64,000 nt of DNA from Actinomycetota bacterium (GTDB lineage Bacteria > Actinomycetota > Acidimicrobiia > Acidimicrobiales > GCA-2861595): positions 4,052 through 68,051 of the forward strand of contig JBQTJJ010000033.1 in the NCBI GenBank assembly GCA_052387235.1, written 5' to 3'. A program made the translations under genes and the position numbers. Positions 2 to 63,307 of the stretch are shown one piece after another. Each line of letters starts with the position of its first letter. Positions within the stretch are counted from its first letter, which is position 1. Below the pieces are notes generated by a model. The model worked only from the letters and a program-made list of their open reading frames with translations, was not told the DNA's origin and made no database searches.

Positions 2-121
2 AAGACCCTCGACGTCCACGTCAAGCGGCTCCGGGCCAAGCTGGAGCTCGACCCTTCCCAGCCCCGGCGCATCGTCACCATCCGCGGGCTGGGCTACCGC
101 TACGAGCGGCCCGGCCCGTGA
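2..121 (+). CDS. OmpR/PhoB-family response regulator, C-terminal winged-helix fragment (5' end outside window)
   Basis: The frame reads [39 protein letters not shown], a typical end of an OmpR-type wHTH domain. The TGA at 119-121 overlaps the phoU GTG (GTGA). Identity as the Pho regulator is inferred only from the phoU/pst context. Confidence 0.8.
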
Positions 122-861
122 GGGACGCCCACGGGGTCCTCCAACCGTCTGCGACACTTGACGACGTGGTCGAGACCCGGAAGCGCTACCACGAGCAGCT
201 GGCCCGGATGAAGTCCGACACCGTGCGCCTGGCGGCCATGGCCACCGAGCAGATCGCGGCCGGCACCAGGGCCCTGCTCGACGGGGAGCTGTCGGCGGCG
301 GAGCGTGTCGTGGCCGCCGACCGCGACATGGACGACCTCACCCACGAGATCGAGGCCAGCGCCCATCTGGTGCTGGCCCGCCAGAGCCCCCTGGCCAGCG
401 AGCTGCGGGCCGTCATCACCATCCTGCGGGTGATCCACGAGGTGGAGCGCTGCGGCGACCTGATGGTGAACGTGGCCAAGGCCACCCGGCGCCTGTACCC
501 CCGCGGCCTCGATCCCAGGATCCGCGGCCTCATCGACCGCATGGGGACCCAGGCGGTGGACCAGCTGCGCCTCGCCATCACCGCCTTCGAGGCCGAGGAC
601 GTGGAGCAGGCCGCCGCCCTGGTCGACATGGACGACGTGATGGACGACCTGCAGAAGACGTTGTTCCGGGCCATCTTCAGCGCCGGCGCCGCCGACGAGG
701 AGTCGGTGCAGCGGGCGGTGCAGGTGGCCCTGGTGGGGCGGTACTACGAGCGGATCGCCGATCACGCCGTCAACGTGAGCGAGCGGGTCCGCTTCATGGT
801 CACCGGGGCGTGGCCCGGGGACCATGACGAGCCGGAGGAACCGGTGGCGCCGGATCGGTGA
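118..861 (+). CDS. phoU: Phosphate signalling/transport regulator PhoU
   Basis: 247 aa with two PhoU repeats ([12 protein letters not shown]... and [16 protein letters not shown]). GTG start overlaps the upstream regulator's stop. Confidence 0.9.
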
Positions 862-875
862 GCCGGCGGCGCGCC

Positions 876-1772
876 CTACCCGAACCGCCCGGTGATGTAG
901 TCCTCGGTGCGGCGGTCGGCCGGCGCCGTGAAGATCCGCTCGGTGCGGTCGAACTCCACCAGCACACCGGTTCGCTCGGCCCCGTCGGCGCTGACCTCGG
1001 CCGTGAAGAAGGCGGTGCGGTCCGAGACGCGGGCCGCCTGCTGCATGTTGTGGGTGACGATCACGATGGTGTAGTCCCGCTTCAGCTCGATCATGAGCTC
1101 CTCGATCCGGTTGGTGGCGAGGGGGTCGAGGGCGGAGCACGGCTCGTCCATGAGGATGACGTCGGGGCGCACCGCGATGCACCGGGCGATGCAGAGGCGC
1201 TGCTGCTGGCCTCCCGACAGCGAGAACGCGCTCTTGCGGAGCTTGTCCTTGACCTCGTCCCAGAGGGCCGCCTTGCGGAGCGACTCCTCCACCAGGTCGT
1301 CCATGCTCGGCGGCTTGTGGTTGTTGACCTTCGGTCCGAAGGCGACGTTGTCGTAGATCGACTTCGGGAACGGGTTCGGCTTCTGGAACACCATGCCGAT
1401 GCGGCGGCGGACCTCGATGGGGTCGACGTCGTCGCCGTACAGATCCTGCCCGTGGTAGCGGATGCGGCCCTCCACCCTGGTGCCGGGGATCAGCTCGTTC
1501 ATGCGGTTCAGGCAGCGGATGAAGGTGCTCTTGCCGCAACCCGACGGCCCGATGATGGCGGTGATCCGGTTCCCCGCGATGTCCATCCTGATGTCGCGGA
1601 TGGCCAGGAACGGCCCGTAGAAGAACCGGAGGTCCTCGACCGTGAAGACCGGGTCGCCGGTGTGCTCCGGCGTGCCGGGCTCGGCTGCCGGGACCTCGGG
1701 CCGGCGGGTGGGGCCGGGCGGGTCCGCCTGGTCACTCAGCGGCTGGTTCAACGTTGCGGGTGTGTCGGGCAC
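876..1772 (-). CDS. pstB: Phosphate ABC transporter ATP-binding protein PstB
   Basis: Walker [10 protein letters not shown], signature [13 protein letters not shown], Walker B ILMDEP and a PstB-type N-terminus ([11 protein letters not shown]). Confidence 0.95.
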
Positions 1773-1776
1773 AGGG

Positions 1777-2685
1777 TCACCACCGGGTCGTGAATCGGTT
1801 CCTGAGGAAGATGGCGACGGCGTTCATCGCCAGCAGCATGGCCAGCAGGACGATGCCGGCGGCGGCCGCCGCCTCGGCGAAGGCGGCCTGGGGCCGGCCG
1901 GTCCAGTTGAAGATCAGGATGGGCAGCGCCGAGAAGGGGTCCCGGACGTCGTCGGGCGTGTTGAAGATGGCCACCGCCGCCCCGATCACCAGGAGCGGTG
2001 CCGTCTCCCCGATGGCCCGTGACAACGACAGGATCACCCCGGTCATGGTGCCGGGCATGGCGGCCGGGAGCACGTGGTGGCGCACTGCCTGCCACCTTGT
2101 CGCGCCCAGGGCGTAGGCCGCCAGCCGGATGGACTCGGGGACGGCACGCAGCGACTCCCGGGCCGCGATGATGATGAGGGGAAGGCTCATGACCGCAAGG
2201 GTGAGCCCCCCGGCCAGCAGGCTCGGGCCCATCTCGAAGAAGCGCACGAACACGCCGAGCCCGAGGATGCCGTAGACCACCGACGGTACGCCGGCCAGGT
2301 TGGCGATGTTGGCCTCGATCAGGTTGGTGAGGCGGTTGCGCGGCGCGAACTCCTCCAGGTACACCGCGGCGCCGACGCCGACGGGGAAGCTGAAGGCGGC
2401 GGTGAGGCCCATCAGCCAGAGCGTGCCGTGGATGGCGGCCTTGATGCCGGCCCGGGCCGGGAACCGGGAGACGAAGTTCCCGAGGAACGCTCCGGGATCG
2501 GCGATGAGCCGGTCCCATCCCCGGTCGTAGAGGTTGAACAGGAGCAGGCCCAGGGCGACGACGCCGAGGAAGGTGCCCAGGAAGAGGGCCGAGGCGAACG
2601 CGCCGTCGAGGGCCAGCGCCATGGTCCGGCGGCTGGTGCCGCGGCCCAGGCGGGGGACGGGACGAGGGACGGCTGTCGTGGTCAC
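1777..2685 (-). CDS. pstA: Phosphate ABC transporter permease PstA
   Basis: The C-terminal 300 aa of track ORF 1777..3531 is a PstA-type permease (EAA-loop-like [10 protein letters not shown]...). The longer ORF is a shadow extension through pstC. Start is set at the GTG overlapping the pstC stop (GTGA at 2682-2685); an alternative ATG lies at 2622. Confidence 0.88.
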
Positions 2686-3620
2686 TGGTAGGTCTGGCGG
2701 AAGCGGCGGACGAGGCGGATGCTCAGCAGGTTCATGGCCAGGGTGATGACGAACAGTGTCGCCCCCACCGCGAACAGCGACTGGTAGCGGGTGGTCCCGG
2801 ACGCCGCCTCGCCGCTGACGGTCTGGGCGATGAAGGCGGTGAGCGTCTGGATCGACTCGAAGAAGCTGGTCGTGATCCGGGGGGTGTTGCCGGCCGCGAT
2901 GGTGACGGCCATCGTCTCGCCCACTGCCCGCGAGACGCCGAGGATGACCGAGGCCGCGATGCCGGACAGGGCGGCGGGCACCACCACCCGGAGGGCCACG
3001 ACCCGCTTGGTGGCCCCCATGCCGAAGGCGGCCTCCCGGAGCGAGTTCGGGACGGCGCGCATGGCGTCCTCGCTGATCGAGGCGATGACCGGGAGGATCA
3101 TGAGGCCGACGGCGACGGCCCCGGCGGCGGCGTTGAAGATGAACACCCGGTCCTCGCCGAACACCGGACGCAGCAGGGTGGGCGTGACGAAGTTCAGGGC
3201 GAAGAACCCGACCACCACCGTCGGTATCCCGGCCAGCACCTCGAGCACGGGCTTCACCACCGCCCGTACCCGGGGGTGGGCGTACTCCGACAGGTAGATC
3301 GCGGTGGCCAGGCCCAGCGGCAGCCCCACCACCAGCGACCCCAACGCGATCATGAGCGACCCGTTGAGCAGCGGGAGGACGCCGTACTCGCCCCCGTCGG
3401 CGCCGCCCGTGGGCGCCCAACGGGTTCCAGTGAGGAAGTCGACGATGGACTCCTTGGCGAAGAACCGCAGGGCCTCCTCCGCCAGCACGGCCACGATGCC
3501 CACCGTGACCAGGACCGACAGGGCGGCGCACACGAACAGGAGGCCGACGACGATGCGCTCCCCGGGACGGGAACGTCGGCGCTCGATGCCGAGCTCGGGG
3601 GATGGGGCGGAGATCGCCAT
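2682..3620 (-). CDS. pstC: Phosphate ABC transporter permease PstC
   Basis: 312-aa polytopic permease with a PstC-like motif ([20 protein letters not shown]), located between pstS and pstA. Confidence 0.9.
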
Positions 3621-3677
3621 GAGCGGGACCAGCCGATGCTAGCTACTGGGCCGGTCCGTGCGCCGGTGCCGGCCGGC

Positions 3678-4655
3678 TCAGGCGCCGGCCTCCAGCTTGG
3701 CCAGACCCTCCTCGTAGTCCTCGGAGGGCGCCGGCGTGTAGCCGACGTCCTTGATGATGTCGGGGGTCGTCTCGAGGTAGAACTTCACGAACTCCTTCAC
3801 CTCGGGCCGCTCCAGGGACGAGTTCTTGACGTAGATGAACAGCGGCCGGCTGAGCGGGTAGTCGCCGGACTCCACCGTCTCGTCGCTCGGTGCCACGCAG
3901 GTGCCGTCCTCGCCCGACACCTTGATGTCCTTCAGGACGTCCTCGTTCTCGGTGAAGTAGGCGAAACCGAAGTAGCCCCAGGAGTTCTTCTCGCCCTTGA
4001 TCCCCTGCACGAGGGTGTTGTCGTCTTCGGAGGCGGTGTAGTCGGTCCGCGGCTTGAGGCTCTCGGGCTTCTTCGGATCGCCCAGGACCTCCTCCACGAA
4101 GAAGTCGTACGTGCCCGAGTCGGTGCCGGGGGCGAAGATGGCGATCTTCTCCGCCGGGAACTTGGGGTCGACCTGGTTCCACGTCGTGGCGCCGCCCTCT
4201 TTGAAGATGGAGCCCATCTGCTCCACGCTCAGGCACTCGAGGAAGGTGTTCTCGGCCGAGGTCACCACGGCCAGGCCGTCGAGGCCGACGCGAAGCTCCG
4301 AGAACTCGATCCCCTTGGCCGCGCAGGCCTGGGCCTCCTCGTCCTTGATGGGCCGGGAGGCGTTGGAGATGTCGGTCTCGCCGGCGCAGAACTTCTGGAA
4401 CCCGCCTCCGGTGCCGGACGTGCCCACCGGGACCTGCACGCCTGCCTGCACCAGTTGGAACTCCTCGGCGATGGCCTCGGTGATGGGGGCCACGGTCGAC
4501 GACCCGTCGATCACCACCGATCCCGAGAGGCTGCCCCCTCCCCCCCCGGTCCCGGCCGTGCCGGCGTCGTCGTCGCCGCCGCAGGCGCCGAACACCAGCG
4601 CCAGCGCCAGCGACGCCCCCGCCAGGCGCGCCCGCCGTCCACCGAATCCCGTCAT
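3678..4655 (-). CDS. pstS: Phosphate-binding lipoprotein PstS
   Basis: PBP-like domain (GSSTVAPITEAIAEEF, GTSGTGGGFQKF). Lipobox LVFGAC follows a basic N-terminus. Start is set at the internal ATG at 4655, preceded by GGGGGAGG; the track ORF extends to 4709. Confidence 0.9.
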   Translation of the reverse strand: MTGFGGRRARLAGASLALALVFGACGGDDDAGTAGTGGGGGSLSGSVVIDGSSTVAPITEAIAEEFQLVQAGVQVPVGTSGTGGGFQKFCAGETDISNASRPIKDEEAQACAAKGIEFSELRVGLDGLAVVTSAENTFLECLSVEQMGSIFKEGGATTWNQVDPKFPAEKIAIFAPGTDSGTYDFFVEEVLGDPKKPESLKPRTDYTASEDDNTLVQGIKGEKNSWGYFGFAYFTENEDVLKDIKVSGEDGTCVAPSDETVESGDYPLSRPLFIYVKNSSLERPEVKEFVKFYLETTPDIIKDVGYTPAPSEDYEEGLAKLEAGA

Positions 4656-4768
4656 CCGGACCTCCCCCTGTCTCCGACCGCACCCGGCCGGTGGCCTTTC
4701 TGGACGCACCCTGCGCCCCCGCCTACCCGGCGACCACGCTACGAGGGGCTCCTGGCGGCGAGGCCACC

Positions 4769-4801
4769 GGGAGATGGACGGCAGGTGAACGAGGCCAGAA
4801 C
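4769..4801 (-). promoter_or_regulatory. PHO-box-like operator: three contiguous 11-nt direct repeats upstream of pstS (also upstream of divergent ppx)
   Basis: The minus strand reads GTTCTGGCCTC GTTCACCTGCC GTCCATCTCCC, 114-146 nt upstream of the pstS ATG. This matches the GTTCACC-type 11-nt direct-repeat units known for actinobacterial PhoP. The same three-unit layout recurs upstream of ppk1. Confidence 0.6.
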
Positions 4802-4857
4802 ATCCGGCGTCGCCCCTTCCGAGCAGGTAGTTGACTCGCAGGCCCTAGCGTGCCGCT

Positions 4858-6417
4858 GTGCGGATTGCCGCCCTTGACCTCGGCAGCAACTCGTTCCACC
4901 TCCTCGTGGCCGACACCAAGCCGGACGGCACGTTCACGCCGGTGCTGCGGGAGAAGGAGATGCTGCGCCTCGGCGACGTGGTGGCCCGCACCGGCCGGCT
5001 CACCGACGAGGCGTGCGAGCGGGCGCTGGAGTCGGTGGGCCGGTTCCGGGCCCTGGCCGAGGCGGCCGGCGTCGACCAGATGGTCGCCTGCGCCACGGCC
5101 GCCATCCGGGAGGCCGAGAACGGGGCCGAGCTGGTGTCCCGCTTCTTCACCGAGGCGGGCGTGGCCGTCCGGGTCATCAGCGGGCGGGAGGAGGCGGCCC
5201 TCATCTTCCGGGCCGTGCAGGCCAGCGTCCTCATCGACCCGGGGCCGGCGCTGTGCCTCGACCTCGGCGGCGGCAGCCTCGAGATCGTGGTGGGCGACGC
5301 CCGGGCCCAGGCCTGGGCCACCAGCGTCAAGCTGGGCGTGGGACGCCTGACGGCCGAGCTGGTGCAGAACGACCCCCCGAAGCAGGGCGACCTGCGCCGG
5401 CTCCGGGACCGCATCGTGCCCGTGCTGGGCCAGGTGGCGGTGGAGGTGGCCCCGTTCAGGCCCCGGCTGCTGGTGGGGACCAGTGGCACCTTCTGCGACC
5501 TGGCCCGGATGGCGGCGGTGCAGGAGACGGGCACCGTCCCCATCTCCGTCAACCAGCTCCACGTGGCCGCCGCGGCCCTGGCGGCGGTCCACGAGAAGCT
5601 CGTCTCGATGACCGCGTCGCAACGCCGGAAGCTGCAGGGCCTCGATGCCCGCCGGGCCGAGCTGGCGCCGGCCGGGTCGCTGCTGGCCCTCGTGGCCCTC
5701 GAGCTGTTCGGGTTCGAGGAGCTGGTGGTGGGCGACTGGGCCCTCCGGGAGGGCATGGTGCTCGATGCCATCGGGCACCAGGAGCCGGACCAGGGCGACC
5801 CCCGGGTCATCCGGACGGCGTCGGTGCTCGACCTGTGCGCGCGCTGCGGCTGGCAGGAGGAGCACTCCCGCCAGGTCGCCCGCCTGGCCACGAGGTTGTT
5901 CGATCTCACGGCCGGCCTGCACGAGCTGACCGACAGGCACCGGGAGCTGCTGGAGCACGCCGCCCTGCTGCACGACATCGGCGAGCACGTGTCCAGCGAG
6001 GGCCACGACAAGCACACCGCCTATCTCATCCGGCACGGCCGGCTGCGGGGCTTCTCCCCCCAGGAGGTCCACGTCCTGGCCACGCTGGGCCGCTACCACC
6101 GCCAGGGCGAGCCCAAGGCCTCGTTCGAGTCCTTCGCCGCCGTGGACGAGGACGAGCGCCCGGCCGTCCGGACCCTCACCGCCCTCCTGCAGGTGGCCGA
6201 CGGGCTCGACCGGGCCCACGCCGGCGCGGTGGAGGACCTCGACGTCGAGATCGACGACGAGCGGGTGGGGATCCTGGTCCGGGCGTCCACCGACGCCGAC
6301 CTCGAGCTGTGGGGCGCCCGCCGCAAGCGGGCCCTGTTCGAGCAGGTCACCGGGCGCCGGCTGGACCTGGCGGCGACCCAGCCCGCCGGCGACGCCGAAC
6401 GCCCGCGCAAAGCCTGA
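4858..6417 (+). CDS. ppx: Ppx/GppA-family exopolyphosphatase / pppGpp phosphohydrolase with C-terminal HD domain
   Basis: N-terminus IAALDLGSNSFHLLVAD (ASKHA fold), and an HD-domain motif ALLHDIGEHVS later. 519 aa, GTG start. Confidence 0.9.
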   Translation: MRIAALDLGSNSFHLLVADTKPDGTFTPVLREKEMLRLGDVVARTGRLTDEACERALESVGRFRALAEAAGVDQMVACATAAIREAENGAELVSRFFTEAGVAVRVISGREEAALIFRAVQASVLIDPGPALCLDLGGGSLEIVVGDARAQAWATSVKLGVGRLTAELVQNDPPKQGDLRRLRDRIVPVLGQVAVEVAPFRPRLLVGTSGTFCDLARMAAVQETGTVPISVNQLHVAAAALAAVHEKLVSMTASQRRKLQGLDARRAELAPAGSLLALVALELFGFEELVVGDWALREGMVLDAIGHQEPDQGDPRVIRTASVLDLCARCGWQEEHSRQVARLATRLFDLTAGLHELTDRHRELLEHAALLHDIGEHVSSEGHDKHTAYLIRHGRLRGFSPQEVHVLATLGRYHRQGEPKASFESFAAVDEDERPAVRTLTALLQVADGLDRAHAGAVEDLDVEIDDERVGILVRASTDADLELWGARRKRALFEQVTGRRLDLAATQPAGDAERPRKA

Positions 6418-7507: not shown

Positions 7508-8890
7508 GTGATGGCCTCGTCGACCGACCGCCCGCCCGCCCCGCCGAGCGCGCCCGCCAAGACGGTGGTGCTCGACACCTCGGTGCTGGTGGCCGACCCC
7601 GACGCCCTCCAGCAGTTCGCGGGCTGCGCCCTGAAGGTGCCGCTCACCGTGATCGAGGAGCTGGACGGGCTCAAGGCCCGTCCCGACGGCGTGGGCCGCT
7701 CGGCCCGTGAGGCACTGCGGGGCATCGAGGCCCTGCGGGTGGGTGCCGGCGGGTCGCTGGCCGACCCGGTCACCCTGGGCCACGGCGGGACGCTCGCCAT
7801 CATGGTCAACGGGGTGAACCAGGCCCTGCTGGGGGAGCACTACCTGGACCCCGCCAGTCCCGACAACCGCATCATCGGCGCCGCCCTCGGCCTGGTGCTC
7901 GACGGGATGGAGGTGGAGGTGGTGTCCAACGACGCCGCCCTGCGCATCAAGGCGGCCCACGTGGGCCTGGCCGCCAAGGAGTACGTGCCCATCTCCGCCT
8001 ACGGCCGCGAGCTCGGCTCAGCCGGCTGGCACACCCTGGCCGGCCTCGATGCTGCCCTGATCGACGGCCTGTTCGCCGACCGCGCCGTGGCCGCCGCCGG
8101 CGTGCCCGGGGCCGGGATCGTGCACGAGAACGAGTTCGCCGTGCTCCGCGCCGGCCAGCAGTCGGCCCTCACCAGGCGTAAGGGCGACCAGCTGTGCCTG
8201 CTCCGCCAGGGCCAGGAGGCGTTCGACCTCAAGCCCCGCAACGTGGAGCAGCGCCTGGCCCTCGACCTGCTGCTCGACCCGGACGTGTCGGTGGTGGCCC
8301 TGGACGGCCCGGCCGGCACCGGCAAGACGCTGCTGGCCATCGCGGCCGGGCTGGAGCAGGTCTGGAACCACCCGAGCTCGCGCCGCTACGAGCGCCTCGC
8401 CATCTACCGGCCGGTGGTGGCGGTGGGCCGCCAGGACCTCGGCTACCTGCCCGGCACCCTGGACGAGAAGCTCGATCCGTGGATGGGCGCCATCCACGAC
8501 GCGGTGGTGGCCATGAGCGACGGCCGGCGCAAGAGCGCGGCCGACGAGACCATCGCCCAGATCACGGCCGAGGGCCGGCTGACCATGGAGTCGGTCACCT
8601 ACCTGCGGGGCCGGTCGCTGCACGGCACCTGGGTGCTGCTGGACGAGGCCCAGAACCTCGAGCCCAGCCTGGCCAAGACCGTCCTCACCCGGGCCGCCGA
8701 GGGGACCAAGGTGGTCTTCACGGGCGACACCAGCCAGATCGACGCCCCGTTCCTCTCGGCCGAGACCAACGCCATGTCCGTGCTCACCGCCGCCCTGGGC
8801 GGGGGCCGGGGGGGCGGCCTGTTCGGCCACATCCGCCTCACCCAGGGCGAGCGAAGCCCGGTGGCCACCATGGCGGCCGCGCTGCTGTAG
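7508..8890 (+). CDS. phoH2: PhoH2: PIN-domain RNase fused to PhoH-like ATPase
   Basis: N-terminal PIN domain (VVLDTSVLVADPDAL...). The PhoH domain has Walker A GPAGTGKT and Walker B VLLDEAQN. Confidence 0.85.
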   Translation: MMASSTDRPPAPPSAPAKTVVLDTSVLVADPDALQQFAGCALKVPLTVIEELDGLKARPDGVGRSAREALRGIEALRVGAGGSLADPVTLGHGGTLAIMVNGVNQALLGEHYLDPASPDNRIIGAALGLVLDGMEVEVVSNDAALRIKAAHVGLAAKEYVPISAYGRELGSAGWHTLAGLDAALIDGLFADRAVAAAGVPGAGIVHENEFAVLRAGQQSALTRRKGDQLCLLRQGQEAFDLKPRNVEQRLALDLLLDPDVSVVALDGPAGTGKTLLAIAAGLEQVWNHPSSRRYERLAIYRPVVAVGRQDLGYLPGTLDEKLDPWMGAIHDAVVAMSDGRRKSAADETIAQITAEGRLTMESVTYLRGRSLHGTWVLLDEAQNLEPSLAKTVLTRAAEGTKVVFTGDTSQIDAPFLSAETNAMSVLTAALGGGRGGGLFGHIRLTQGERSPVATMAAALL

Positions 8891-8920
8891 CGAGCGGCTC
8901 GGGGCAGCCGCGCCGCGCGC

Positions 8921-9670
8921 TCAGCCCGCGGGCCAGAGGCGGCCCGCCACCTCGGACCACAGGTCGTGGAAGGCCCGGGCGGCGGCGGTGGTGGGGGCGA
9001 AGTGGCCGATGGGCGCCCGCTCCACGCCCATGCGCTCGACGGCGCTGGCGTTCGGGATGGCGGTGGCGAGGAAGGCCGGCCACCGCCCGGCCAGCGCCTC
9101 CAGCAGCTCGCGGTGCAGCCGCTTCCGCCTGTCCACCATGGTGAAGTGGGGGAGCAGGCCGGGGGCGTCGGCGCCCTCGTCGAGGAACCGGGCCAGCTGG
9201 TCGAGGGTGCGGGCCGACAGGGTCGTGGGGATGACCGGCACCAGCAGGTGGCGGGCCGCCCCGAACACGCTCTCGCTGGCGAGGGAGATGCTGGGCGGGC
9301 AGTCGAGGAAGGCGACGTCGTAGCCGCCGGCGAGGGGGTCGAGCAGGCCGGCCAGCCGCTCGGTGGGGCGTTTGGTGGCGTCGAGGTGCAGATCGAGATG
9401 GCGGAGGGAGAAGTCGGCGGGGACGAGGTGGAGCCCGGGCACGTCGGTGGCCCGCACGTGGGCCGCCAGCTCGCCGTGGGAGCCCACCAGCCGCTCGGTG
9501 CCGCCCTTGACCTTGGCCTTTACCCGGAAGTAGTAGCTGGCCGCGCCCTGCGGGTCGAGGTCCCACACCAGGACGCGCGCCCCCGAGCGGGCCGCCTCGA
9601 ACGCCAGGTTCACGGCCGACGTGGTCTTCCCCACGCCACCCTTGATGCTGTAGGTGGCGAGCACCTTCAT
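8921..9670 (-). CDS. Orphan ParA/MinD-family ATPase (deviant Walker A), no HTH and no parB partner
   Basis: The 249-aa tail of track ORF 8921..11515 reads MKVLATYSIKGGVGKTTSAVNLA...VWDLDPQG. The ATG at 9668-9670 overlaps the TGA of the upstream CHAD gene (ATGA). Confidence 0.85.
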   Translation of the reverse strand: MKVLATYSIKGGVGKTTSAVNLAFEAARSGARVLVWDLDPQGAASYYFRVKAKVKGGTERLVGSHGELAAHVRATDVPGLHLVPADFSLRHLDLHLDATKRPTERLAGLLDPLAGGYDVAFLDCPPSISLASESVFGAARHLLVPVIPTTLSARTLDQLARFLDEGADAPGLLPHFTMVDRRKRLHRELLEALAGRWPAFLATAIPNASAVERMGVERAPIGHFAPTTAAARAFHDLWSEVAGRLWPAG

Positions 9671-11202
9671 CCGCGGCCGCCCGCCGACGACAGGAGCTCG
9701 GTGAAGGTGCGCGCCGTCTGCTTGGTGTCGTACGCGCTGAAGCGCTGGGCGAACTCGTCGCGGGCGGACCGGCGGCGCTGCTCGAGGTGCTCGGTGAGCC
9801 GGCCCATGGCCACCAGCGTGTCCGGCCCCACCCCCGGCCTGCCGTGCAGCTCGGCCGCGACGTGCGCCAGCTGGTGCACGTGGACCTCGGCGTCCTGGTG
9901 CTCGCCCAGGTTGTCCTGGAGGGCCTTGAGGCGCTGCACGAAGGCCTTGCGGGGGCCCGGGGCGTAGAGGCTGCCGAAGCACTCGAGGAGGTAGCGCAGC
10001 TTCTTGGCGTCCTTGCGCAGCTCGTGCAGCACCTCGGCCGGGGTCTCGGGGCCGATGGAGCGCCCCCGCTCCAGGAGCTGCGCCTGCGCCTTGGCCGTCC
10101 GGCCGGCGGCGACCCTGCCGATGGCCGGGCCGGTCCCGGCGACCTCGTCCCCGGTCCCGCCTCCCTGCAGCCATCCCTGCCACCCGGTCATGAGCTTGCG
10201 GTAGCGGGCCGACCGCAGCACCTTGGCCAGGGCCACGTGCTCCGCCCGCCGGCGACCCGAGATGTGGGCCAGGACGGGAGCGAGCTGGCTCGACCCCTCC
10301 GGTCCGAGGGGTGCCACGTACCCGCTCCACTCGATCACGTAGACGTCGAGGTCCCGGGCCGGACCGGTTGCGCCCCCCAGCCAGCCGAAGCCGTCGCGAT
10401 AGCTGTCGCGCACGGCCGGCGGCAGCACGCCCTTGCCCTGGGCCAGCACCGACCGGGTGCGGCGCACCGCCACCCGCAGGTCGTGGAGGAACTCGGGGTC
10501 GACGTCGTCCACCGTGCCCTGCCAGTTGGCGTCGACGGTGGCGGCCAGGTTGGCCAGCACCCGCCGGAACGCCTGCAGCGCCGGCTCCCTCCGGTCCAGG
10601 GGGACGGTGGGCGATCCCTTGAAGCCGGTCAGGTCGATGCCGGCCGCCGCCGCGGCGGCGGTGAGGACGCCCGCTCCGTCGGCGAGTCCGAGCGACACGA
10701 GCAGGCTCCGGGCGCCGGCCGCATCCTTCGGGTACCCGGCCAGCTCGCCGACCTGCACCGCCCAGATCGGACCCACCTCGTCGTGGCCCTCCACGGTGAC
10801 CCCGTCGTGGACCTCGACGGCCACCCGGGCCTTGCCGGCACGGTCCCGGCGCACGCCGCGGGTCGCACTGGCGGTGACGGTCATCACCCGCAGGAGGGCC
10901 CGGATGTCGGTGTGGGCCAGGAGGCGGGCGCGGAAGGGGCCGGCCGGCAGGTCGGCGGCGAAGCGGGGCGCGCCGTCGACGCTGAGCCCGACCGGGCTGG
11001 TCCCCTCGGCGTCGAGGACCAGCTGGTGCGACCCGGCCTGCTCCCGAAGCTCCAGGCGCATGCCGGCCCCGGCCAGGCGCCCGTCGAACGTGTCGAGCAC
11101 CGTGCGGCGTACCCGGCGGCTCGGGCCGAGCTCGTAGCCGGCGCCGGCCAGCGCCGACAGCACGCCGGCGGGATCGACGTCGGGTGAGGTGTAGGCGTCC
11201 AT
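9667..11202 (-). CDS. CYTH-like / CHAD domain protein (YgiF-like architecture; CHAD is a polyphosphate-granule binding module)
   Basis: 511 aa. The N-terminal ~200 aa is CYTH-like (VLDTFDGRLAGAGMRLELRE) but has no N-terminal ExExK motif. The C-terminal half has CHAD helices (LHDLRVAVRRTRSVL, LHELRKDAKKLRYLLECF). Confidence 0.85.
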   Translation of the reverse strand: MDAYTSPDVDPAGVLSALAGAGYELGPSRRVRRTVLDTFDGRLAGAGMRLELREQAGSHQLVLDAEGTSPVGLSVDGAPRFAADLPAGPFRARLLAHTDIRALLRVMTVTASATRGVRRDRAGKARVAVEVHDGVTVEGHDEVGPIWAVQVGELAGYPKDAAGARSLLVSLGLADGAGVLTAAAAAAGIDLTGFKGSPTVPLDRREPALQAFRRVLANLAATVDANWQGTVDDVDPEFLHDLRVAVRRTRSVLAQGKGVLPPAVRDSYRDGFGWLGGATGPARDLDVYVIEWSGYVAPLGPEGSSQLAPVLAHISGRRRAEHVALAKVLRSARYRKLMTGWQGWLQGGGTGDEVAGTGPAIGRVAAGRTAKAQAQLLERGRSIGPETPAEVLHELRKDAKKLRYLLECFGSLYAPGPRKAFVQRLKALQDNLGEHQDAEVHVHQLAHVAAELHGRPGVGPDTLVAMGRLTEHLEQRRRSARDEFAQRFSAYDTKQTARTFTELLSSAGGRG

Positions 11203-11264
11203 GGGCGGCGCTCGGTTTCGGCTGCGTCGTGCGCCCGGCCGCCGCCTGGCCCAAGCTTGGCGCC

Positions 11265-11738
11265 ATGGCCGTCGAGATCGAGCGGAAGTTCCTTGTGACC
11301 GCCGTGCCCGGGCCCGAACTGCTCGGTCCCGGCGTGCGGCTGCGGCAAGGGTACCTGGCCGAGGACGGCCCGGTGCAGGTGCGGGTGCGCATCACCGAGG
11401 CGGCGGCGGTGCTGACGGTGAAGGCGGGACGGGGCCTCAGCCGCACGGAGGTGGAGCTGCCCGTCGGGCCGGACGAGGCCGAGTCGTTGTGGGCCCACAC
11501 CGGCGGGCGGCGCATCGAGAAGGTGCGCTTCCACGTGGACGCGGGCGGCCATGCCGTCGAGGTCGACCTCTACGCCGGCGCCCTCGACGGCCTGTGCACG
11601 GCGGAGGTCGAGTTCGCCTCGGTGGAGGAGGCCGAGCGGTTCGTCCCGCCCCCGTGGTTCGGGCCCGAGGTCACCACCGTGGCCGGCTGGGACAACGCCT
11701 CGCTGGCCAGGAGCGGCCGGCCCGAGCCGCTCAGCTGA
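11265..11738 (+). CDS. Stand-alone CYTH (triphosphate tunnel metalloenzyme) protein
   Basis: MAVEIERKFLV carries the canonical ExExK motif. 157 aa. Start is set at the ATG at 11265; the track ORF starts at 11184. Confidence 0.85.
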   Translation: MAVEIERKFLVTAVPGPELLGPGVRLRQGYLAEDGPVQVRVRITEAAAVLTVKAGRGLSRTEVELPVGPDEAESLWAHTGGRRIEKVRFHVDAGGHAVEVDLYAGALDGLCTAEVEFASVEEAERFVPPPWFGPEVTTVAGWDNASLARSGRPEPLS

Positions 11739-12147
11739 GGCGCTCCTCGAACACGTCGAGCACCTGGCGGTCGCGCGGGTAGGAGAGCAGCTCCCGGGCC
11801 TGCCCCACCGCCAGCCAGCGGATCTCGTCCACCTCGGGCCCCGGCTCGAAGCCCCCTCCGAGCGGGCGCATGGCCCAGTACCGGGCCACCTTGGCCCGCT
11901 GCCGGCGGTCGGCGTATGCCACCTCGGTGAGGTACGGGCCCAGCTCGCAGCGCAGCCCGGTCTCCTCGGCCACCTCCCGCAGGGCGCAGTCCTCGTCGCT
12001 CTCACCGGGGTCGGCCTTCCCCTTGGGCAGCGTCCAGTCGTCGTACCGGGGCCGGTGGACCAGGAGCACCTCGCGGCCGCCGCCACTCGCCCGCCACACC
12101 CCGCCGCCGGCGGCGCGGACGAGCTCGCCCCGGCCCGGCCCCGTCAC
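11731..12147 (-). CDS. Nudix hydrolase (MutT1-like Nudix half)
   Basis: Nudix box GKADPGESDEDCALREVAEETG. GTG start overlaps the stop of the upstream histidine phosphatase (GTGA at 12144-12147). Track ORF 11731..12615 is an over-extension. Confidence 0.85.
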   Translation of the reverse strand: MTGPGRGELVRAAGGGVWRASGGGREVLLVHRPRYDDWTLPKGKADPGESDEDCALREVAEETGLRCELGPYLTEVAYADRRQRAKVARYWAMRPLGGGFEPGPEVDEIRWLAVGQARELLSYPRDRQVLDVFEERLS

Positions 12148-12605
12148 TCCGGCGGCGTCAGGTAGCGGCCCACGATCCTCGACGTGGCGTCGCGCTCGAG
12201 CACCCACACCGACCCCTTCTGGCACCGGTCGTCGCCGAGGCGGGCGCCGTTCCCGTCGAGGTGGGCCAGCAGGTCGGCGATCACGTCGCCATGGGTGCAC
12301 AGGACGGTGTGGCCGGGATGGCCGAGCAGCGAGTGCACGAGGGCGGCGGCCTGCTCGCCCGCGCCCTCGGCCAGCGCCTCCGACGCCCCCACGGCGAGGC
12401 CCAGGGCGGCGGCGGCCGGCGCCAGCGTGTCGACGCAGCGCACGGTGGGGCTCGAGACGAACCGCGTGACCGGGAACCCGGAGAGGACCCCGACCAGCCC
12501 GTCGGCCTGGCGCCGGCCCCGCTCGTTCAAGGGCCGGGCCGGATCCTCGCCGGCCCACGCGCTCCGGGGCAGGGCGACGGCATGGCGGACGACGAGGACG
12601 GGCAC
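12144..12605 (-). CDS. SixA-like histidine phosphatase (MutT1-like C-terminal half encoded separately)
   Basis: N-terminus VLVVRHAVA (RHG/A catalytic motif), with a conserved THGD later. 153 aa. Confidence 0.8.
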   Translation of the reverse strand: MPVLVVRHAVALPRSAWAGEDPARPLNERGRRQADGLVGVLSGFPVTRFVSSPTVRCVDTLAPAAAALGLAVGASEALAEGAGEQAAALVHSLLGHPGHTVLCTHGDVIADLLAHLDGNGARLGDDRCQKGSVWVLERDATSRIVGRYLTPPE

Positions 12606-12687
12606 GAGGGTGCATTGTGCCCCTCCCGCCGGCCGTCTCCGAATCCGGCCGGGGCGCGGCCGCCCGGCGCAGTCCGGAGGTCCGCGA

Positions 12688-14847
12688 CTACAGCGAGCTC
12701 TCCGACGCGTCGGCGGCCAGGTCCTCGGCCTCCCGCCGCCGGCGCACCCGCTCCTCGGCCAGCTGCTGGAGCCGCACGTGCGACGACAGCCCCTCGGTGG
12801 TGGCCACCTTGGACCAGGACCCGTCGGACGCCAGCTGCCAGGCCAGGACGTCGTCGGCCAGCTCCACGTCCAGGATCTCCCGCAGCCGGTCCTGCAGGTC
12901 CGGGGCCTCCACCGGCACCAGGACCTCGATGCGCTTGTCCAGGTTGCGGGCCATCATGTCGGCCGAGCCGATGAGGTACCGGACCGGGCCGTGGGCGGGG
13001 TCGCCGAAGGCGAAGATCCTCGAGTGCTCCAGGTAGCGCCCGACGATGGAGCGGACCCGGATGTTCTCCGACAGCTCGGGCACGCCGGGCCGCAGGCCGC
13101 ACATGCTGCGCACGATCAGGTCGACCGACGTCCCGGCCGCCGAGGCCAGGTAGAGGGCGTCGATGACGGCCTTGTCGACCAGGCTGTTGACCTTCATCAC
13201 GATGCGCCCGGGCCTGGGCCCCGAGCACTCCCGCTCGATCAGCTCCACGATGCGGGCCCGCAGGTGGGTCGGCGCGAGGAGGACCTTGCGGTACCGCTGC
13301 TGGCGGCTGTAGCCGGTGAGGAAGTTGAACAGGTCGGTGAGGTCGGCGCCCAGGTCGGCGTCGGCCGACAGCAACCCGATGTCCTCGTAGATCCGGGCCG
13401 TCTTCGGGTTGTAGTTGCCCGTGCCCACGTGGCAGTAGCGACGGATGCCGTCCTCCTCCTGGCGAACGACGAGCGCCGTCTTGCTGTGGGTCTTGAAGCC
13501 GACCAGGCCGTACACGACGTGGACGCCCGCCTCCTCCAGGGCCCGGGCCCAGGCGATGTTGGCCTGCTCGTCGAAGCGGGCCTTCAGCTCCACCAGGGCC
13601 GAGACCTGCTTGCCCCGCTCGGCCGCCCGGATGAGCGACTTCACGATCGGGCTGTCGCCCGACGTGCGGTAGAGCGTCTGCTTGATGGCCAACACCTTCG
13701 GGTCGGAGGCGGCCTGGCGGATGAACGCCTCCACGGTGGTCTTGAACGACTCGTAGGGGTGGTGGACGAGGATGTCCCGCTCCCGCAGCGCCGCGAACAC
13801 GTCGGCCCGGTCGTTGTCGTCCGCCGCCAGCTCCGGGGGCGTCACCGGATGCCAGGGCTCGTCCTTGAGATCGGCGCGGTCCAGCTCGTGCAGGGCCCAC
13901 AGGCCACCGAGGTCGAGCGGCCCCTGCACCTCGAACACGTCGTTGGGCTCGACCTCCAGCTCCCGCTCGAGCAGCTGGCGGGCCTCGGACGACATGCCGG
14001 CATCGACCTCCACCCGCACGGCCTGCCCGAAGCGGCGCCGGCGCAGCTCCATCTCCACCGCCGCCAGCAGGTCGTCCGCCTCCTCGTCCTCCTCCAGGGT
14101 GAGGTCGGTGTTGCGGGTGACCCGGAACGGGTACTGGCACTCGATCTCCATGCCCGGGAAGAGGGCGTCGAGGTGGGCCGCGATCACCTGCTCGAGGGGC
14201 ACGAACCGCTCGCCATCCGGGAGGAACACGAAGCGGGGCAGGAGCGGTGGGACCTTCACACGCGCGAAGCGGCGCTCGCCCGTCACCGGGTCCCGGACGA
14301 TCACGGCCAGGTTGAGCGAGAGGTTGGAGATGTAGGGGAAGGGGTGGCCGGGGTCGACCGCCAGCGGCGTGAGCACCGGGAACACGTCGTCGAACACCCG
14401 CTGCAGCTGCTTGCGGTCATCGTCGCCGAGGGTGGCGAGGTCGCACATACGGATGCCGGCCGCGGCCAGGGCCGGCACCACGCGCTCCAGGAAGACGCCG
14501 GACTGGCGGTCGACGAGGGTGGCGATGCGCTGGCGGATGGCGTCGAGCTGCTGCGCCGGCGTGAGCCCGTCGGCCGTCGCCGACGACATCCCGGCCGCCA
14601 CCTGGTCCTTGAGCCCGGCCACCCGCACCTGGAAGAACTCGTCGAGGTTGGTGGAGAAGATGGCCAGGAACTTGGCCCGCTCGAGCAGGGGGAGGGACTC
14701 GTCCTCGGACAGGGCCAGCACCCGTTCCTGGAAATCGAGGAGGGACAGCTCCCGGTTGATGTAGGGCGGCAGCTCGCCGGCGGCGGCCGGCGGCGGGGTC
14801 GGGGCAGGCTCCTCGATGAGCTCTTCCAGCTGCCGTGCCATCCCCAA
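12688..14847 (-). CDS. ppk: Polyphosphate kinase 1
   Basis: 719 aa with a PPK1 N-terminus (YINRELSLLDFQERVL...FLAIFSTNLDEFFQVRVAGL) and PLD-like C-terminal domains. The track start at 14847 is TTG; the ATG at 14841 (MARQLEEL) is equally likely. Confidence 0.95.
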   Translation of the reverse strand: MGMARQLEELIEEPAPTPPPAAAGELPPYINRELSLLDFQERVLALSEDESLPLLERAKFLAIFSTNLDEFFQVRVAGLKDQVAAGMSSATADGLTPAQQLDAIRQRIATLVDRQSGVFLERVVPALAAAGIRMCDLATLGDDDRKQLQRVFDDVFPVLTPLAVDPGHPFPYISNLSLNLAVIVRDPVTGERRFARVKVPPLLPRFVFLPDGERFVPLEQVIAAHLDALFPGMEIECQYPFRVTRNTDLTLEEDEEADDLLAAVEMELRRRRFGQAVRVEVDAGMSSEARQLLERELEVEPNDVFEVQGPLDLGGLWALHELDRADLKDEPWHPVTPPELAADDNDRADVFAALRERDILVHHPYESFKTTVEAFIRQAASDPKVLAIKQTLYRTSGDSPIVKSLIRAAERGKQVSALVELKARFDEQANIAWARALEEAGVHVVYGLVGFKTHSKTALVVRQEEDGIRRYCHVGTGNYNPKTARIYEDIGLLSADADLGADLTDLFNFLTGYSRQQRYRKVLLAPTHLRARIVELIERECSGPRPGRIVMKVNSLVDKAVIDALYLASAAGTSVDLIVRSMCGLRPGVPELSENIRVRSIVGRYLEHSRIFAFGDPAHGPVRYLIGSADMMARNLDKRIEVLVPVEAPDLQDRLREILDVELADDVLAWQLASDGSWSKVATTEGLSSHVRLQQLAEERVRRRREAEDLAADASESSL

Positions 14848-14869
14848 CGGTACTGCCGGGCCGCCTGCG

Positions 14870-14902
14870 CCGAGATGGCGCGGCGGTGAACGATCGGCGA
14901 AC
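14870..14902 (-). promoter_or_regulatory. PHO-box-like operator upstream of ppk1
   Basis: The minus strand reads GTTCGCCGATC GTTCACCGCCG CGCCATCTCGG, 29-61 nt upstream of the ppk ATG. It has the same three-unit pattern as the pstS site (GTTC-, GTTCACC-, -CCATCTC-). Confidence 0.5.
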
Positions 14903-14910
14903 TCTCCGGG

Positions 14911-15618: not shown

Positions 15619-15668
15619 GGCTCGATGGTGGAGGCGCCACGTTGCGAGCGGATGTCGGCCGCCGCCCA

Positions 15669-15701
15669 TCCGCGTGAACGGCGATGGGCGGCTCCGTGAA
15701 G
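15669..15701 (-). promoter_or_regulatory. Weaker PHO-box-like 11-nt periodic repeats upstream of the HAD-IB gene
   Basis: The minus strand reads CTTCACGGAGC CGCCCATCGCC GTTCACGCGGA, 51-83 nt upstream of the start. Unit order and register differ from the pstS/ppk sites. Confidence 0.3.
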
Positions 15702-15734
15702 GGGCGGCGGCGGGCTCCGCCCGGGACGCTGTGT

Positions 15735-16160: not shown

Positions 16161-16471
16161 GGGCCTTCCTCCTCGTTTCCCGGGTGCGGTGCCCTCCCCG
16201 GATGCGACCGACGCTACGCCCCGGCGCAGGCTCGTGCGCCGGGTGACTCGATCCCGTCGTCGTTGGTCACGAGGACCCGGATCGGCGAGTCCCCCTCCGG
16301 TCCTCGGCCTCCCTCCTGCCAGGTCGTGGATCGGCGGGAGGGAGGCACGAGGACGACGGTACGCCCCCTCCCTTACGACCCGATTGCCGCGCCGGCACGT
16401 CGACGTGACATCGAGGTGAATCCCCGGATCGCCCGGCGGGCGCACTCGATGACCTGCCGCACCGGGTAGCC

Positions 16472-60918: not shown

Positions 60919-60989
60919 GGCCCCGTCCTACCCGGCCGGCGCCGATCGCACCCGCCCGGCGGGCCGGCGTGACCCCCGCTGCGCGAGAC

Positions 60990-63307
<2,318 letters not shown>

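Follow-up and report, generated by a model that had tools for sequence, protein, structure and literature searches.

Two arrays of three 11-nt direct-repeat units, one upstream of pstS and one upstream of ppk1, were analysed in a 64,000-nt stretch of genomic DNA (hereafter the window), and both are very probably PHO-box operators for the orthologue of RegX3 and Streptomyces PhoP whose gene ends at base 121, beside phoU. This assignment follows from the fit of the units to the PhoP/RegX3 repeat and from the presence of a RegX3-like regulator gene and phoU at the start of the window. Both sites contain a consensus unit and at least two units in 11-nt register, lie in the promoter of a Pho gene and are conserved upstream of orthologs, and their unit scores (Table 1) are those of multi-unit (class II/III) operators.

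The source organism is uncultured and is represented by an Acidimicrobiales metagenome-assembled genome of ~75% G+C. The gene island that carries pstSCAB and ppk1 also holds ppx, phoH2, CHAD, CYTH, NUDIX and phoU genes. As the initial annotation had proposed, the window opens with an OmpR-type regulator gene; the best match of its encoded tail in the Protein Data Bank is M. tuberculosis RegX3 (2oqr, E 4e-11, 26/35 residues identical), and phoU, predicted to start at GTG 165, lies immediately downstream.

Table 1. Positions of the regulator, operators, promoter elements and neighbouring genes in the window
Feature	Position	Strand	Description or basis
OmpR/RegX3-type response regulator gene, 3' end	2..121	+	last 39 codons and stop; recognition helix and wing
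phoU, phosphate signalling complex protein	165..861	+	TIGR02135, 173.6 bits (cut-off 130)
pstSCAB operon	876..4655	-	predicted regulated target; NCBIfam TIGR02136, TIGR02138, TIGR00974 and TIGR00972, each over cut-off
pstB	876-1772	-	NCBIfam, over cut-off
pstA	1777-2691	-	NCBIfam, over cut-off
pstC	2682-3620	-	NCBIfam, over cut-off
pstS	3678-4655	-	NCBIfam, over cut-off
Putative pstS -10 hexamer TAGCGT	4736..4741	-	TAnnnT conserved at fixed distance
Spacer, pstS core to -10 box, 27 nt	4742..4768	-	alignment of relatives and slot statistics of 20 promoters
pstS operator, three 11-nt direct-repeat units	4769..4801	-	sequence and unit scores
pstS U3 GTCCATCTCCC	4779..4769	-	6.8 bits
pstS U2 GTTCACCTGCC	4790..4780	-	15.5 bits
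pstS U1 GTTCTGGCCTC	4801..4791	-	-3.0 bits; weak upstream extension
ppx/gppA-type exopolyphosphatase	4858..6417	+	divergent from pstS
NUDIX gene	11731-12147		downstream of ppk1
His_Phos_1 gene	12144-12605		downstream of ppk1
ppk1, polyphosphate kinase 1	12688..14841	-	predicted regulated target; Pfam PP_kinase N, middle, C1 and C2 domains
Putative ppk1 -10 hexamer TACCGT	14847..14852	-	17 nt past U3, 5 nt before ATG 14841
ppk1 operator, three 11-nt units	14870..14902	-	sequence and unit scores
ppk1 U3 CGCCATCTCGG	14880..14870	-	-7.5 bits, Acidimicrobiia matrix
ppk1 U2 GTTCACCGCCG	14891..14881	-	12.2 bits
ppk1 U1 GTTCGCCGATC	14902..14892	-	4.5 bits
Strong stem-loop containing the site upstream of the HAD-IB gene	15658..15711	-	past the stop codon (15735) of the SnoaL-like gene

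A direct reading of the sequence confirmed both 33-base sites, with units starting at exact 11-nt intervals on one strand (4801, 4790 and 4779 at pstS; 14902, 14891 and 14880 at ppk1) and lying on the coding strand, 5' of the pstS ATG at 4655 and the ppk1 ATG at 14841. In Streptomyces, the PhoP unit is the 11-nt sequence G(G/T)TCAYYYR(G/C)G, in which positions 1-7 (GTTCACC) are most important (PMC2275107). Agreement with this consensus reaches 10/11 in pstS U2 and 9/11 in ppk1 U2, is 8/11 in U3 of each site, and falls to 7/11 in ppk1 U1 and 5/11 in pstS U1 (GTTC plus position 8). The composite pattern GTTC-N7-GTTCACC-N2-C-N3-CCATCTC matches the window only at these two sites and was absent from 100 shuffles; as a significance test it is circular, having been derived from both sites, and an independent matrix was used instead.

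The pstS promoters of other Acidimicrobiia, 11 in all, supplied this unit matrix; the window and its closest relatives were left out. Among the 128,000 positions on both strands of the window, the highest two-unit score, 22.3 bits, falls at 4769-4790 (pstS) and the second highest, 16.7 bits, at 14881-14902 (ppk1). By exact tail probabilities, the pstS and ppk1 scores would be reached by chance 0.0023 and 0.046 times per window, respectively, and 3e-6 and 5e-5 times per 150-nt upstream region. The ppk1 score falls inside the range of maxima from 30 random windows (mean 11.4, maximum 17.4), and support for this site therefore comes from its position and conservation. Of 11 gene starts scored in the window, belonging to phosphate or polyphosphate genes and to their neighbours, only those of pstS and ppk1 had a positive two-unit score.

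It might be argued that the two sites resemble each other by chance, at a genomic G+C content of 75%, and have no function, given that their 33-mers are identical at just 21/33 positions, that the window contains GTTCACC 18 times, and that a match of 16.4 bits lies within the phoU coding sequence. This explanation is extremely improbable and is effectively refuted by the matrix ranking, the low expectations and the conservation of both sites upstream of orthologs, where their spacing to a likewise conserved -10 box is constant. The match within phoU (450-471, minus strand), the third best in the window, is antisense to the gene; a similar but not identical antisense match is present in phoU of locus L004, and another occurs in locus L017. 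It was set aside as an operator, and its score most likely reflects the codons of a conserved PhoU motif.

Alignments of orthologous promoters reveal a footprint at each operator. At pstS, 20/33 motif columns are invariant among the window and loci L001, L163/L082 and L162, compared with 0/28 columns further upstream, and one extra invariant column directly abuts U1. At ppk1, 18/33 motif columns are invariant among the window, L161 and L166, compared with 2/28 upstream, and all three units, including the CGCCATC of U3, are kept in both relatives. The weak units are part of what is conserved at both operators, and close relatives keep the -10 boxes as well, in contrast to the diverged flanks. 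The matrix was also run over 1.6 Mb of high-GC loci picked because they carry ppk, together with a single short pstS contig from the window's own organism. Most matches of at least 16 bits in this 1.6 Mb precede genuine PstS genes (TIGR00975), and others lie upstream of a RegX3-like regulator gene (L007), a PhoR/PnpS-like kinase gene (L077 and L079) and ppk; TAnnnT is found at exactly 27-28 or 16-17 nt from such matches.

A general ppk box in Acidimicrobiia was rejected, with scores of at least 12 bits in only 1/78 ppk upstream regions across the wider class. Boxes of this kind are limited to a few close relatives, occurring in L161 and L166 and, in L163, at the second of its ppk copies; they are displaced, reduced to a single unit or absent in L001, L002, L162 and L167 (80-83% Ppk identity). 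The predicted ppk1 operator is specific to the clade of the window. L163 has its own boxes at phoH2 and ppx, unlike the window.

A common promoter architecture emerges from 20 non-redundant Acidimicrobiia promoters, in which TAnnnT stands exactly 27 nt (sometimes 28) past the core pair and the slots follow the order weak GTT unit, core, core, weak unit, GGTCA-like unit, 5 nt and -10 box. In slot A, G is found at position 2 in 16/20 promoters, C at position 4 in 16/20 and A at position 5 in 12/20; slot B resembles a unit least of all, averaging -12.3 bits. Within the pstS spacer, a DRu-like block, GCCAGG at 4756..4751, is partly conserved (relatives have GTCAGG or GTCAGA) and corresponds to the 'extension support' slot, ending 5 nt before the -10 box. 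Transcription of pstS is predicted to start near 4729, giving a leader of ~74 nt in which the ribosome-binding site GGGGGAGG precedes the ATG. At ppk1, the mRNA is likely to be leaderless or nearly so, because the putative -10 hexamer lies so close to the ATG; TA(C/G/A)(C/G)(G/T)T also occurs 5-9 nt before the ATG in the ppk promoters of nine other loci (L001, L002, L003, L074, L161, L162, L163, L166 and L167). No RNA element known to Rfam was found at the operator loci, the only Rfam match of the window being a TPP riboswitch elsewhere.

The initial annotation had described the two operators as sharing unit order, exact 11-nt phasing and orientation, all of which stand; the promoter register differs, with the -10 box 27 nt past U3 at pstS and 17 nt past it at ppk1, and no other TAnnnT occurs 17 nt past pstS U3 in any of the four species aligned. 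Since the canonical core position is 27-28 nt upstream of the -10 box, it is U2+U3 at pstS and U1+U2 at ppk1 that fill it, so that the operators are offset by one 11-nt slot and ppk1 U3 lies over the -35 position. Unit-for-unit functional equivalence of the two operators was rejected on this geometry.

The same comparison bears on the third unit, which had been suggested to be specific to this lineage. This suggestion does not hold: GTCCATCTCCC and CGCCATCTCGG agree with the Streptomyces consensus better than the first units do, and weak third units of the GTCCAYC type trail two perfect units in the more distant Acidimicrobiia L007, L012, L013 and L015. Because of its 8/11 match to the known repeat, the putative third unit (xxCCATCT) is a degenerate copy of that repeat and no new element. 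Alternatively, only two units per site might bind the regulator, with CCATCTC acting as a -35-like or sigma-contact element or as the site of a second factor, or arising from a coincidence of degenerate sequences. This alternative, which is unlikely, draws on the unequal distances of the CCATCTC blocks from the -10 box, on the negative score of ppk1 U3 and its overlap with the -35 position, and on the poor likeness of slot B to a unit. The unequal distances themselves rule out a shared -35 role, and the third unit was rejected as a common -35 element for that reason. Furthermore, CGCCATC is invariant in 3/3 ppk promoters and GTCCAYC in 4/4 pstS promoters, against diverging flanks; each block also stays in precise 11-nt phase, and Streptomyces PhoP footprints cover poorly conserved extension units of negative information content (PMC2275107).

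An unlikely extension of the operator model would treat the clade's Pho operator as a fixed module for three protomers, [GTTCnnn][GTTCACC][xxCCAYC], whose two possible registers relative to the -10 box differ by one helical turn and whose conserved CCAYC unit would have a role of its own. The registers may be 27 nt from the -10 box with a leadered mRNA (pstS) and 17-18 nt with a leaderless mRNA (ppk1). If so, CCAYC might represent, for example, an asymmetric third regulator protomer or a contact point between regulator and sigma factor, and this contact would set different activation thresholds for uptake and polyphosphate storage.

The candidate binder is the RegX3-like protein whose gene ends at the start of the window. 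It is quite unlikely that the operator, though real, serves another factor instead, such as a DevR/NarL-type PolR-like, GlnR, MtrA or AfsR-type protein, of the kinds that compete at such sites in other actinobacteria. In Microlunatus phosphovorus, DevR-like PolR, the binder tested, was reported to bind GTTCACnnnnnGTTCaC at pstS, ppk, ppgk and pit, and oxygen was the proposed signal (PMC6754071); competition between PhoP and GlnR is on record for some Streptomyces promoters (PMC3561978), and the window includes only a 39-residue tail of the RegX3-like regulator, whose receiver domain and kinase are encoded outside it. The window resembles Microlunatus, a polyphosphate-related actinobacterium, in the identical core and in pairing, under a single motif, genes for taking up phosphate with genes for making polyphosphate, whereas the adjacent regulator is here of the OmpR/RegX3 type and the phoU-pst context points to phosphate. 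Head-to-tail 11-nt repeats are moreover the signature of winged-helix proteins of the OmpR/PhoB family (PMC2275107), the unit consensus equals those published for RegX3 and PhoP, and the regulator gene adjoins phoU and pstSCAB. The same box and geometry also precede the RegX3-like gene of L007 and the PhoR-like kinase gene of L077 and L079, which is the autoregulation expected of a Pho two-component system.

A RegX3-type binder is likewise favoured by comparison with mycobacteria. There the reported RegX3 site is G(T/G)TCAcc-n4-cG (Glover et al. 2007, via PMC7884335), and in M. tuberculosis RegX3 also controls ppk1 (Sanyal et al. 2013, via PMC7884335 and PMC6754071). The window shares with the SenX3-RegX3 system a recognition helix and wing closest to RegX3, a unit equal to the RegX3 site, and ppk1 as a target, predicted in the case of the window; unlike the mycobacterial senX3-regX3 locus, its gene order is regulator-phoU-pstBACS with ppx divergent.

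Other parts of the window contribute no further operator. The initial annotation had placed a looser version of the array upstream of the HAD-IB gene at 15669-15701. This site reads CTTCACGGAGC CGCCCATCGCC GTTCACGCGGA, as had been given, but the units score -2.4, -27.1 and +8.7 bits, and only GTTCACGCGGA (15679..15669) is unit-like. No two adjacent positive units were found upstream of HAD-IB (best two-unit score, -6.1 bits), and the surrounding segment folds as RNA at -37 kcal/mol (z -3.45), with 0/200 shuffles folding as well; as one good unit in a strong hairpin, the site was rejected as an operator. All that the HAD-IB region shares with L167 is one GTTCACGCG unit, which precedes CGCAACGT by 24 nt. 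The window's ppx, phoH2, phoU, CHAD, CYTH and ParA-like genes have no boxes of their own, all scoring below 0 bits. For ppx, the best ppx-oriented score is -9.8 bits; a -10-like TAGCGT is located at 4846-4851, 6 nt before its GTG at 4858, and control of ppx by the pstS box may be conjectured.

From these elements, a mechanism can be proposed in which the phosphorylated OmpR-family regulator would bind the tandem 11-nt units head-to-tail on one face of the helix. Under low phosphate, a regulator dimer would nucleate on the two best units, those of the core position upstream of TAnnnT, and binding would then spread to the weaker units, namely U3 at ppk1 and, at pstS, U1 together with the slots further downstream; sequential and cooperative occupancy of this kind is proposed by analogy. 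Since a recognisable -35 hexamer is absent from both promoters, the bound regulator would be expected to recruit RNA polymerase at each of them. The outcome would be co-induction of high-affinity phosphate uptake through pstSCAB and of polyphosphate kinase, with the identity of the bound protein, activation rather than repression, the order of occupancy and the transcription starts being predictions of the scheme.

In E. coli, the PhoB Pho box consists of two 7-bp CTGTCAT repeats separated by 4 bp; the box takes the place of the -35 element and lies ~10 bp from the -10 box, a picture backed in outline by PMC2275107 and PMC4415409. The proposed mechanism is analogous, with 11-bp periodic direct repeats, head-to-tail winged-helix binding, no -35 element and pstS as a prime target. 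Membership in the E. coli type fails on the repeat sequence, GTTCACC rather than CTGTCAT, and on the -10 distance, the strongest pair being 27-28 nt upstream with weaker units in the gap.

The closest parallels are found in Streptomyces. Footprinted operators of S. coelicolor comprise core, unstable-extension and supporting-extension units and fall into classes I-III (Sola-Landa et al. 2008, PMC2275107), and PHO boxes at both pstS and ppk of Streptomyces are documented (PMC7866108). The 11-nt unit, strict phasing, presence of at least two units and choice of pstS and ppk as targets are shared with the PHO boxes of S. coelicolor and S. lividans, and the combination of a conserved core with weak extension units in the 20 Acidimicrobiia promoters is also that of S. 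coelicolor operators. The predicted operator is of this known multi-unit, core-plus-extension kind. Its position relative to the pstS start codon is -146 to -114, compared with -141 to -113 in S. lividans (PMC2605767). Unlike Streptomyces, the organism belongs to another class of Actinomycetota and has its regulator gene upstream of phoU on the same strand rather than divergent from it; the S. coelicolor pstS operator has two units, whereas three units are visible in the window's clade, with further slots downstream. The fixed 27-28 nt gap between core and -10 box, known here from comparison alone, and the apparently leaderless ppk1 mRNA are further differences. Overall, the identification of the sites as Pho operators of the actinobacterial GTTCACC direct-repeat type, first made in the initial annotation, is upheld by the independent-matrix ranks, the conservation of orthologous promoters and the fit to the published consensus (PMC2275107).

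These results extend a well-known phosphate-regulon system to a new lineage, Acidimicrobiales, with no new mechanism, and the general understanding of Pho regulation is unchanged, the unit, the multi-unit operators and the pstS/ppk targets being established in Streptomyces, mycobacteria and Microlunatus. What the phosphate regulon of Acidimicrobiia gains is an operator model backed by comparison, which specifies unit sequence, slot architecture and a fixed -10 distance for a group that is abundant in soil, water and wastewater and almost wholly uncultured. In the window's clade, high-affinity phosphate uptake and polyphosphate synthesis are linked under one predicted regulator, within an island holding ppk1, ppx, CHAD, CYTH and phoH2, and this link bears on phosphorus cycling and on polyphosphate-accumulating actinobacteria.

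The two 33-nt arrays that the initial annotation had described upstream of pstS and ppk1 were read in the window precisely as given, in both sequence and 11-nt phasing. The pstS array lies in the 202-nt intergenic region between pstS and the divergent ppx gene, at a distance of 114-146 nt from the pstS ATG, and the ppk1 array, whose end is 29 nt from the ATG, occupies the 69-nt gap between the HAD-IB gene and ppk1. The shared pattern of the two motifs has no third occurrence in the window, although this test is circular, the pattern having been made from the sites.

The window belongs to an uncultured member of the Acidimicrobiales. An independent matrix was obtained from relatives, all of them Acidimicrobiales or Acidimicrobiia metagenome-assembled genomes, with 80 loci fetched around ppk homologues (species-representative genomes) and 80 around pstS homologues (metagenomes). 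Many Acidimicrobiia pstS promoters contain two perfect GTTCACCnnnn units followed, after exactly 27 nt, by a TAnnnT hexamer; the 11-nt unit matrix was built on 11 such promoters, leaving out the window and its closest relatives. When both strands of the window (74.7% G+C) were scanned with a two-unit model, the top match was pstS units 2 and 3 (4769-4790, 22.3 bits) and the second was ppk1 units 1 and 2 (14881-14902, 16.7 bits). Random Markov windows gave maxima of 11.4 +/- 2.5 bits (largest 17.4), and exact tail probabilities yielded 0.0023 (pstS) and 0.046 (ppk1) expected chance matches for the window, and 3e-6 and 5e-5, respectively, for an upstream stretch of 150 nt. Among 11 gene starts examined in the island, pstS and ppk1 alone scored above 0. 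The motif observation is clearly confirmed as non-random. The third match, GTTCACCATCAGGTCGCCGCAG (450-471, minus strand, 16.4 bits), runs antisense within the phoU coding sequence and is probably a by-product of the codons for a conserved PhoU motif (..CGDLMVN..) and not a site. Among the numbered comparison loci, a similar antisense match lies within phoU by its coordinates in L004, and another, possibly within phoU, occurs in L017.

Features of the phosphate and polyphosphate region in window coordinates
Feature	Position	Strand	Remarks
OmpR-family response regulator, last 39 codons	2-121		tail of gene
phoU	~165-861	+	
pstB, pstA, pstC, pstS	876-4655	-	
pstS start	ATG 4655	-	lipoprotein signal; ribosome-binding site GGGGGAGG
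pstS operator, units 1-3	4801..4769	-	GTTCTGGCCTC GTTCACCTGCC GTCCATCTCCC, strict 11-nt phasing
ppx -10-like TAGCGT	from 4846	+	6 nt before GTG 4858; no Shine-Dalgarno
ppx/gppA	GTG 4858	+	divergent from pstS
ada-like gene			listed with phoH2, between the ppx/gppA and CHAD entries
phoH2	7508-8890	+	
CHAD gene	9667-11202	-	
CYTH gene		+	weak
NUDIX and His_Phos_1 genes			near ppk1
ppk1	12688-14841	-	
ppk1 -10-like TACCGT	14852..14847	-	5 nt before ATG 14841; no Shine-Dalgarno
ppk1 operator, units 1-3	14902..14870	-	GTTCGCCGATC GTTCACCGCCG CGCCATCTCGG, strict 11-nt phasing
HAD-IB hydrolase	14911-15618	-	
SnoaL-like gene	15735-16160	-	

Both motifs are conserved in close relatives. The pstS motif aligns gap-free across four promoters, those of the window, L001 (JAHFUS01), L163/L082 (Ga0247717_1000011) and L162, and 20 of its 33 columns are invariant (TGTTC, CGTTCA-CT, GTCCA-C--CC), against 0/28 further upstream; a -10 hexamer TA(G/C)(C/G)GT follows 27 nt past unit 3 in all four. 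Of the closer ppk relatives retrieved via a protein collection, two share all three units and carry GTTCACCATCC GTTCGCCGTTG CGCCATCTGGA, 17 nt and TAGCGT (L161) or GTTCAGGCGGC GTTCACCTGGC CGCCATCGAAA, 18 nt and TAACGT (L166). Together with the window they share 18/33 invariant columns, including CGCCATC, as against 2/28 upstream. The ppk1 box is clade-specific. Across the wider class, just one of 78 sequences upstream of ppk reached 12 bits or more. At ppk, the two GTTCAC units of L001 are spaced 10 nt apart and lie 34 nt from the -10 box, L167 (HAD-ppk gene order as in the window) has a single good unit, L162 has irregularly spaced units without any match of at least 9 bits, and a clear box is absent from the ppk promoters of L002 and L003. 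L163 encodes two ppk1 paralogues (4245-6392 and 10001-12121), with a PHO-type box at the second only, and bears boxes before phoH2 and ppx (16605-16626 and 19802-19823, both minus strand), exactly 27 nt from TACGGT or TACCGT; from this distribution, regulon membership varies among close relatives.

The arrays also occupy a defined place relative to the promoter. A set of 20 non-redundant Acidimicrobiia promoters, each containing a strong pair, was divided into 11-nt slots numbered backwards from 5 nt upstream of the -10 box. One architecture emerged, consisting of a weak upstream unit beginning GTT (12/20, 11/20 and 13/20 at positions 1-3), two core units, a slot of low conservation (mean -12.3 bits, n=20; random sequence gives -18.5 bits per unit) and a GGTCA-like slot (G at position 2 and C at position 4 in 16/20 each, A at position 5 in 12/20). 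In L012, L013 and L015, two perfect units are followed by GTCCAC(C/T) or GTCCATG, and in L007 three perfect units precede GTCCACC, which falls in that same slot when measured from the -10 box.

At pstS, the core slots hold units 2 and 3, with unit 1 as the weak upstream unit; at ppk1 they hold units 1 and 2, with 28 nt separating them from the -10 box, and unit 3 overlies the -35 position in the slot next downstream. The unit-for-unit alignment of the two operators proposed initially thus stands for sequence and phasing but not for position relative to the -10 box, where they differ by one slot. This different register excludes the shared CCATCTC as a common -35 element, because none of the four species has an alternative -10 box 17 nt past unit 3 of pstS. 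Nor was support found for the third unit as a special element of the lineage: at both genes it agrees with the Streptomyces consensus unit in 8 of 11 positions, retaining xxxCAYYY, and the third units are best read as degenerate, clade-conserved repeat units. They do not form a novel class of element.

Whether or not they carry a box, ppk promoters have a TA(C/G/A)(C/G)(G/T)T hexamer 5-9 nt before the ATG. Since the ppk1 hexamer directly precedes the ATG, the ppk1 mRNA is probably leaderless or nearly so. In the window, a hexamer at the start codon and the lack of a Shine-Dalgarno sequence at both ppk1 and ppx suggest leaderless mRNAs for both polyphosphate enzymes. The hexamer-at-start arrangement recurs in nine relatives for ppk and in one (L163) for ppx.

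A wider scan covered 1.6 Mb of high-GC loci chosen for ppk, plus one short pstS contig, with the training set excluded. Matches of at least 16 bits were mostly upstream of genuine PstS genes (TIGR00975); the remainder preceded genes for a RegX3-like regulator (L007) and a PhoR/PnpS-like kinase (L077, L079), as well as ppk genes, and a few had no assigned downstream gene. A TAnnnT hexamer was located 27-28 or 16-17 nt from these matches. Boxes before regulator and kinase genes would represent the autoregulation expected of a Pho two-component system.

The looser copy claimed upstream of the HAD-IB gene (15669-15701) did not hold up. Its units score -2.4, -27.1 and +8.7 bits, and with a best two-unit score of -6.1 bits the stretch fails as a PHO operator. 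It is included in a G+C-rich stem-loop (15658-15711, minus strand; -37 kcal/mol, z -3.45, 0/200 shuffles as stable) that starts 24 nt past the SnoaL-like stop codon and lacks a U tract; this may act as a terminator or as a hairpin that stabilises mRNA, placed between the SnoaL-like and HAD-IB genes. The HAD promoters of the window and L167 have in common a single GTTCACGCG unit followed, after 24 nt, by CGCAACGT, which may be meaningful. Upstream of the SnoaL-like gene, an unusually long intergenic region (16161-16471, minus strand, ~310 nt) contains a weak two-unit box, ATTCACCTCGA TGTCACGTCGA (16400-16421, 8.8 bits), 38 nt before TACCGT, and a GGGAGGG...CCCTCCC inverted repeat; these could represent either an additional weak Pho site or a leader structure unconnected with it. 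In addition, GTTCACCGTTCGTTACCGATCC resembles a PHO unit pair (13.6 bits) and is conserved in L161 (5576-5597) and L166 (4510-4531) between a fabD-like operon and a MerR-type regulator gene; its context is fatty-acid synthesis, unrelated to phosphate, and it may be the site of another regulator.

The OmpR-type regulator proposed as the binder is indeed at the window start, with its tail alone inside the window. The best solved relative of this tail is M. tuberculosis RegX3 (2oqr, E 4e-11), with 26/35 identical residues over the recognition helix and wing. In Streptomyces, PhoP recognises 11-nt direct repeats, G(G/T)TCAYYYR(G/C)G, requires at least two units and nearly loses binding when one base is removed from the period; its operators comprise two units (pstS), three, or a core with weak extensions footprinted via cooperative binding, as in the phoU-phoRP operator with its core, unstable extension and supporting extension (PMC2275107). 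Both pstS and ppk have upstream PHO boxes in Streptomyces (PMC7866108), and those of S. lividans pstS span -141 to -113 relative to the start codon (PMC2605767), compared with -146 to -114 in the window. The mycobacterial RegX3 site is given as G(T/G)TCAcc-n4-cG (Glover 2007, cited in PMC7884335), and M. tuberculosis ppk1 is described as under RegX3 control (Sanyal 2013, cited in PMC6754071). In Microlunatus phosphovorus, GTTCACnnnnnGTTCaC occurs at pstS, ppk, ppgk and pit, but the binder examined there was the DevR-like PolR (PMC6754071), whereas the adjacent regulator here is RegX3-like.

The surrounding polyphosphate gene island (8838-15618) comprises HAD-IB, ppk1, His_Phos_1, NUDIX, CYTH (weak match) and CHAD genes and the unassigned ORF 8838-9566, and continues through phoH2, ppx, pstSCAB, phoU and the regulator. 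This ORF has no Pfam match; relatives have a ParA/CbiA-like gene at the same position. L162, L163 and L167 contain the same island, locally rearranged and with PhoX added. Elsewhere in the window, a TPP riboswitch (Rfam RF00059, 56.5 bits, above the gathering score; 60987-61096, plus strand) overlaps the listed start (61066) of a 594-aa ORF (61066-62847, plus strand), presumably a thiamine biosynthesis gene.

The comparative evidence supports well the proposal that both sites are Pho-regulon operators, with the neighbouring OmpR-type regulator as their predicted binder. When phosphate is limiting, the regulator, of RegX3/PhoP type and phosphorylated, would first occupy the core pair, 27-28 nt upstream of the -10 box, as a head-to-tail dimer, then spread cooperatively to weaker adjoining units and recruit RNA polymerase to promoters without a -35 hexamer, so that pstSCAB and ppk1 would be induced. 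An action of the pstS box on divergent ppx, which has its own -10-like TAGCGT and no box in its own orientation, is conjecture. Given the matches in unit sequence, periodicity, multi-unit layout, targets and regulator type, the sites fit an established system and are a known kind of regulatory site in a new lineage. Mildly new are the slot architecture with fixed -10 spacing in Acidimicrobiia, the one-slot offset between the pstS and ppk1 operators, and the clade-restricted recruitment of ppk1, probably leaderless, to the regulon.
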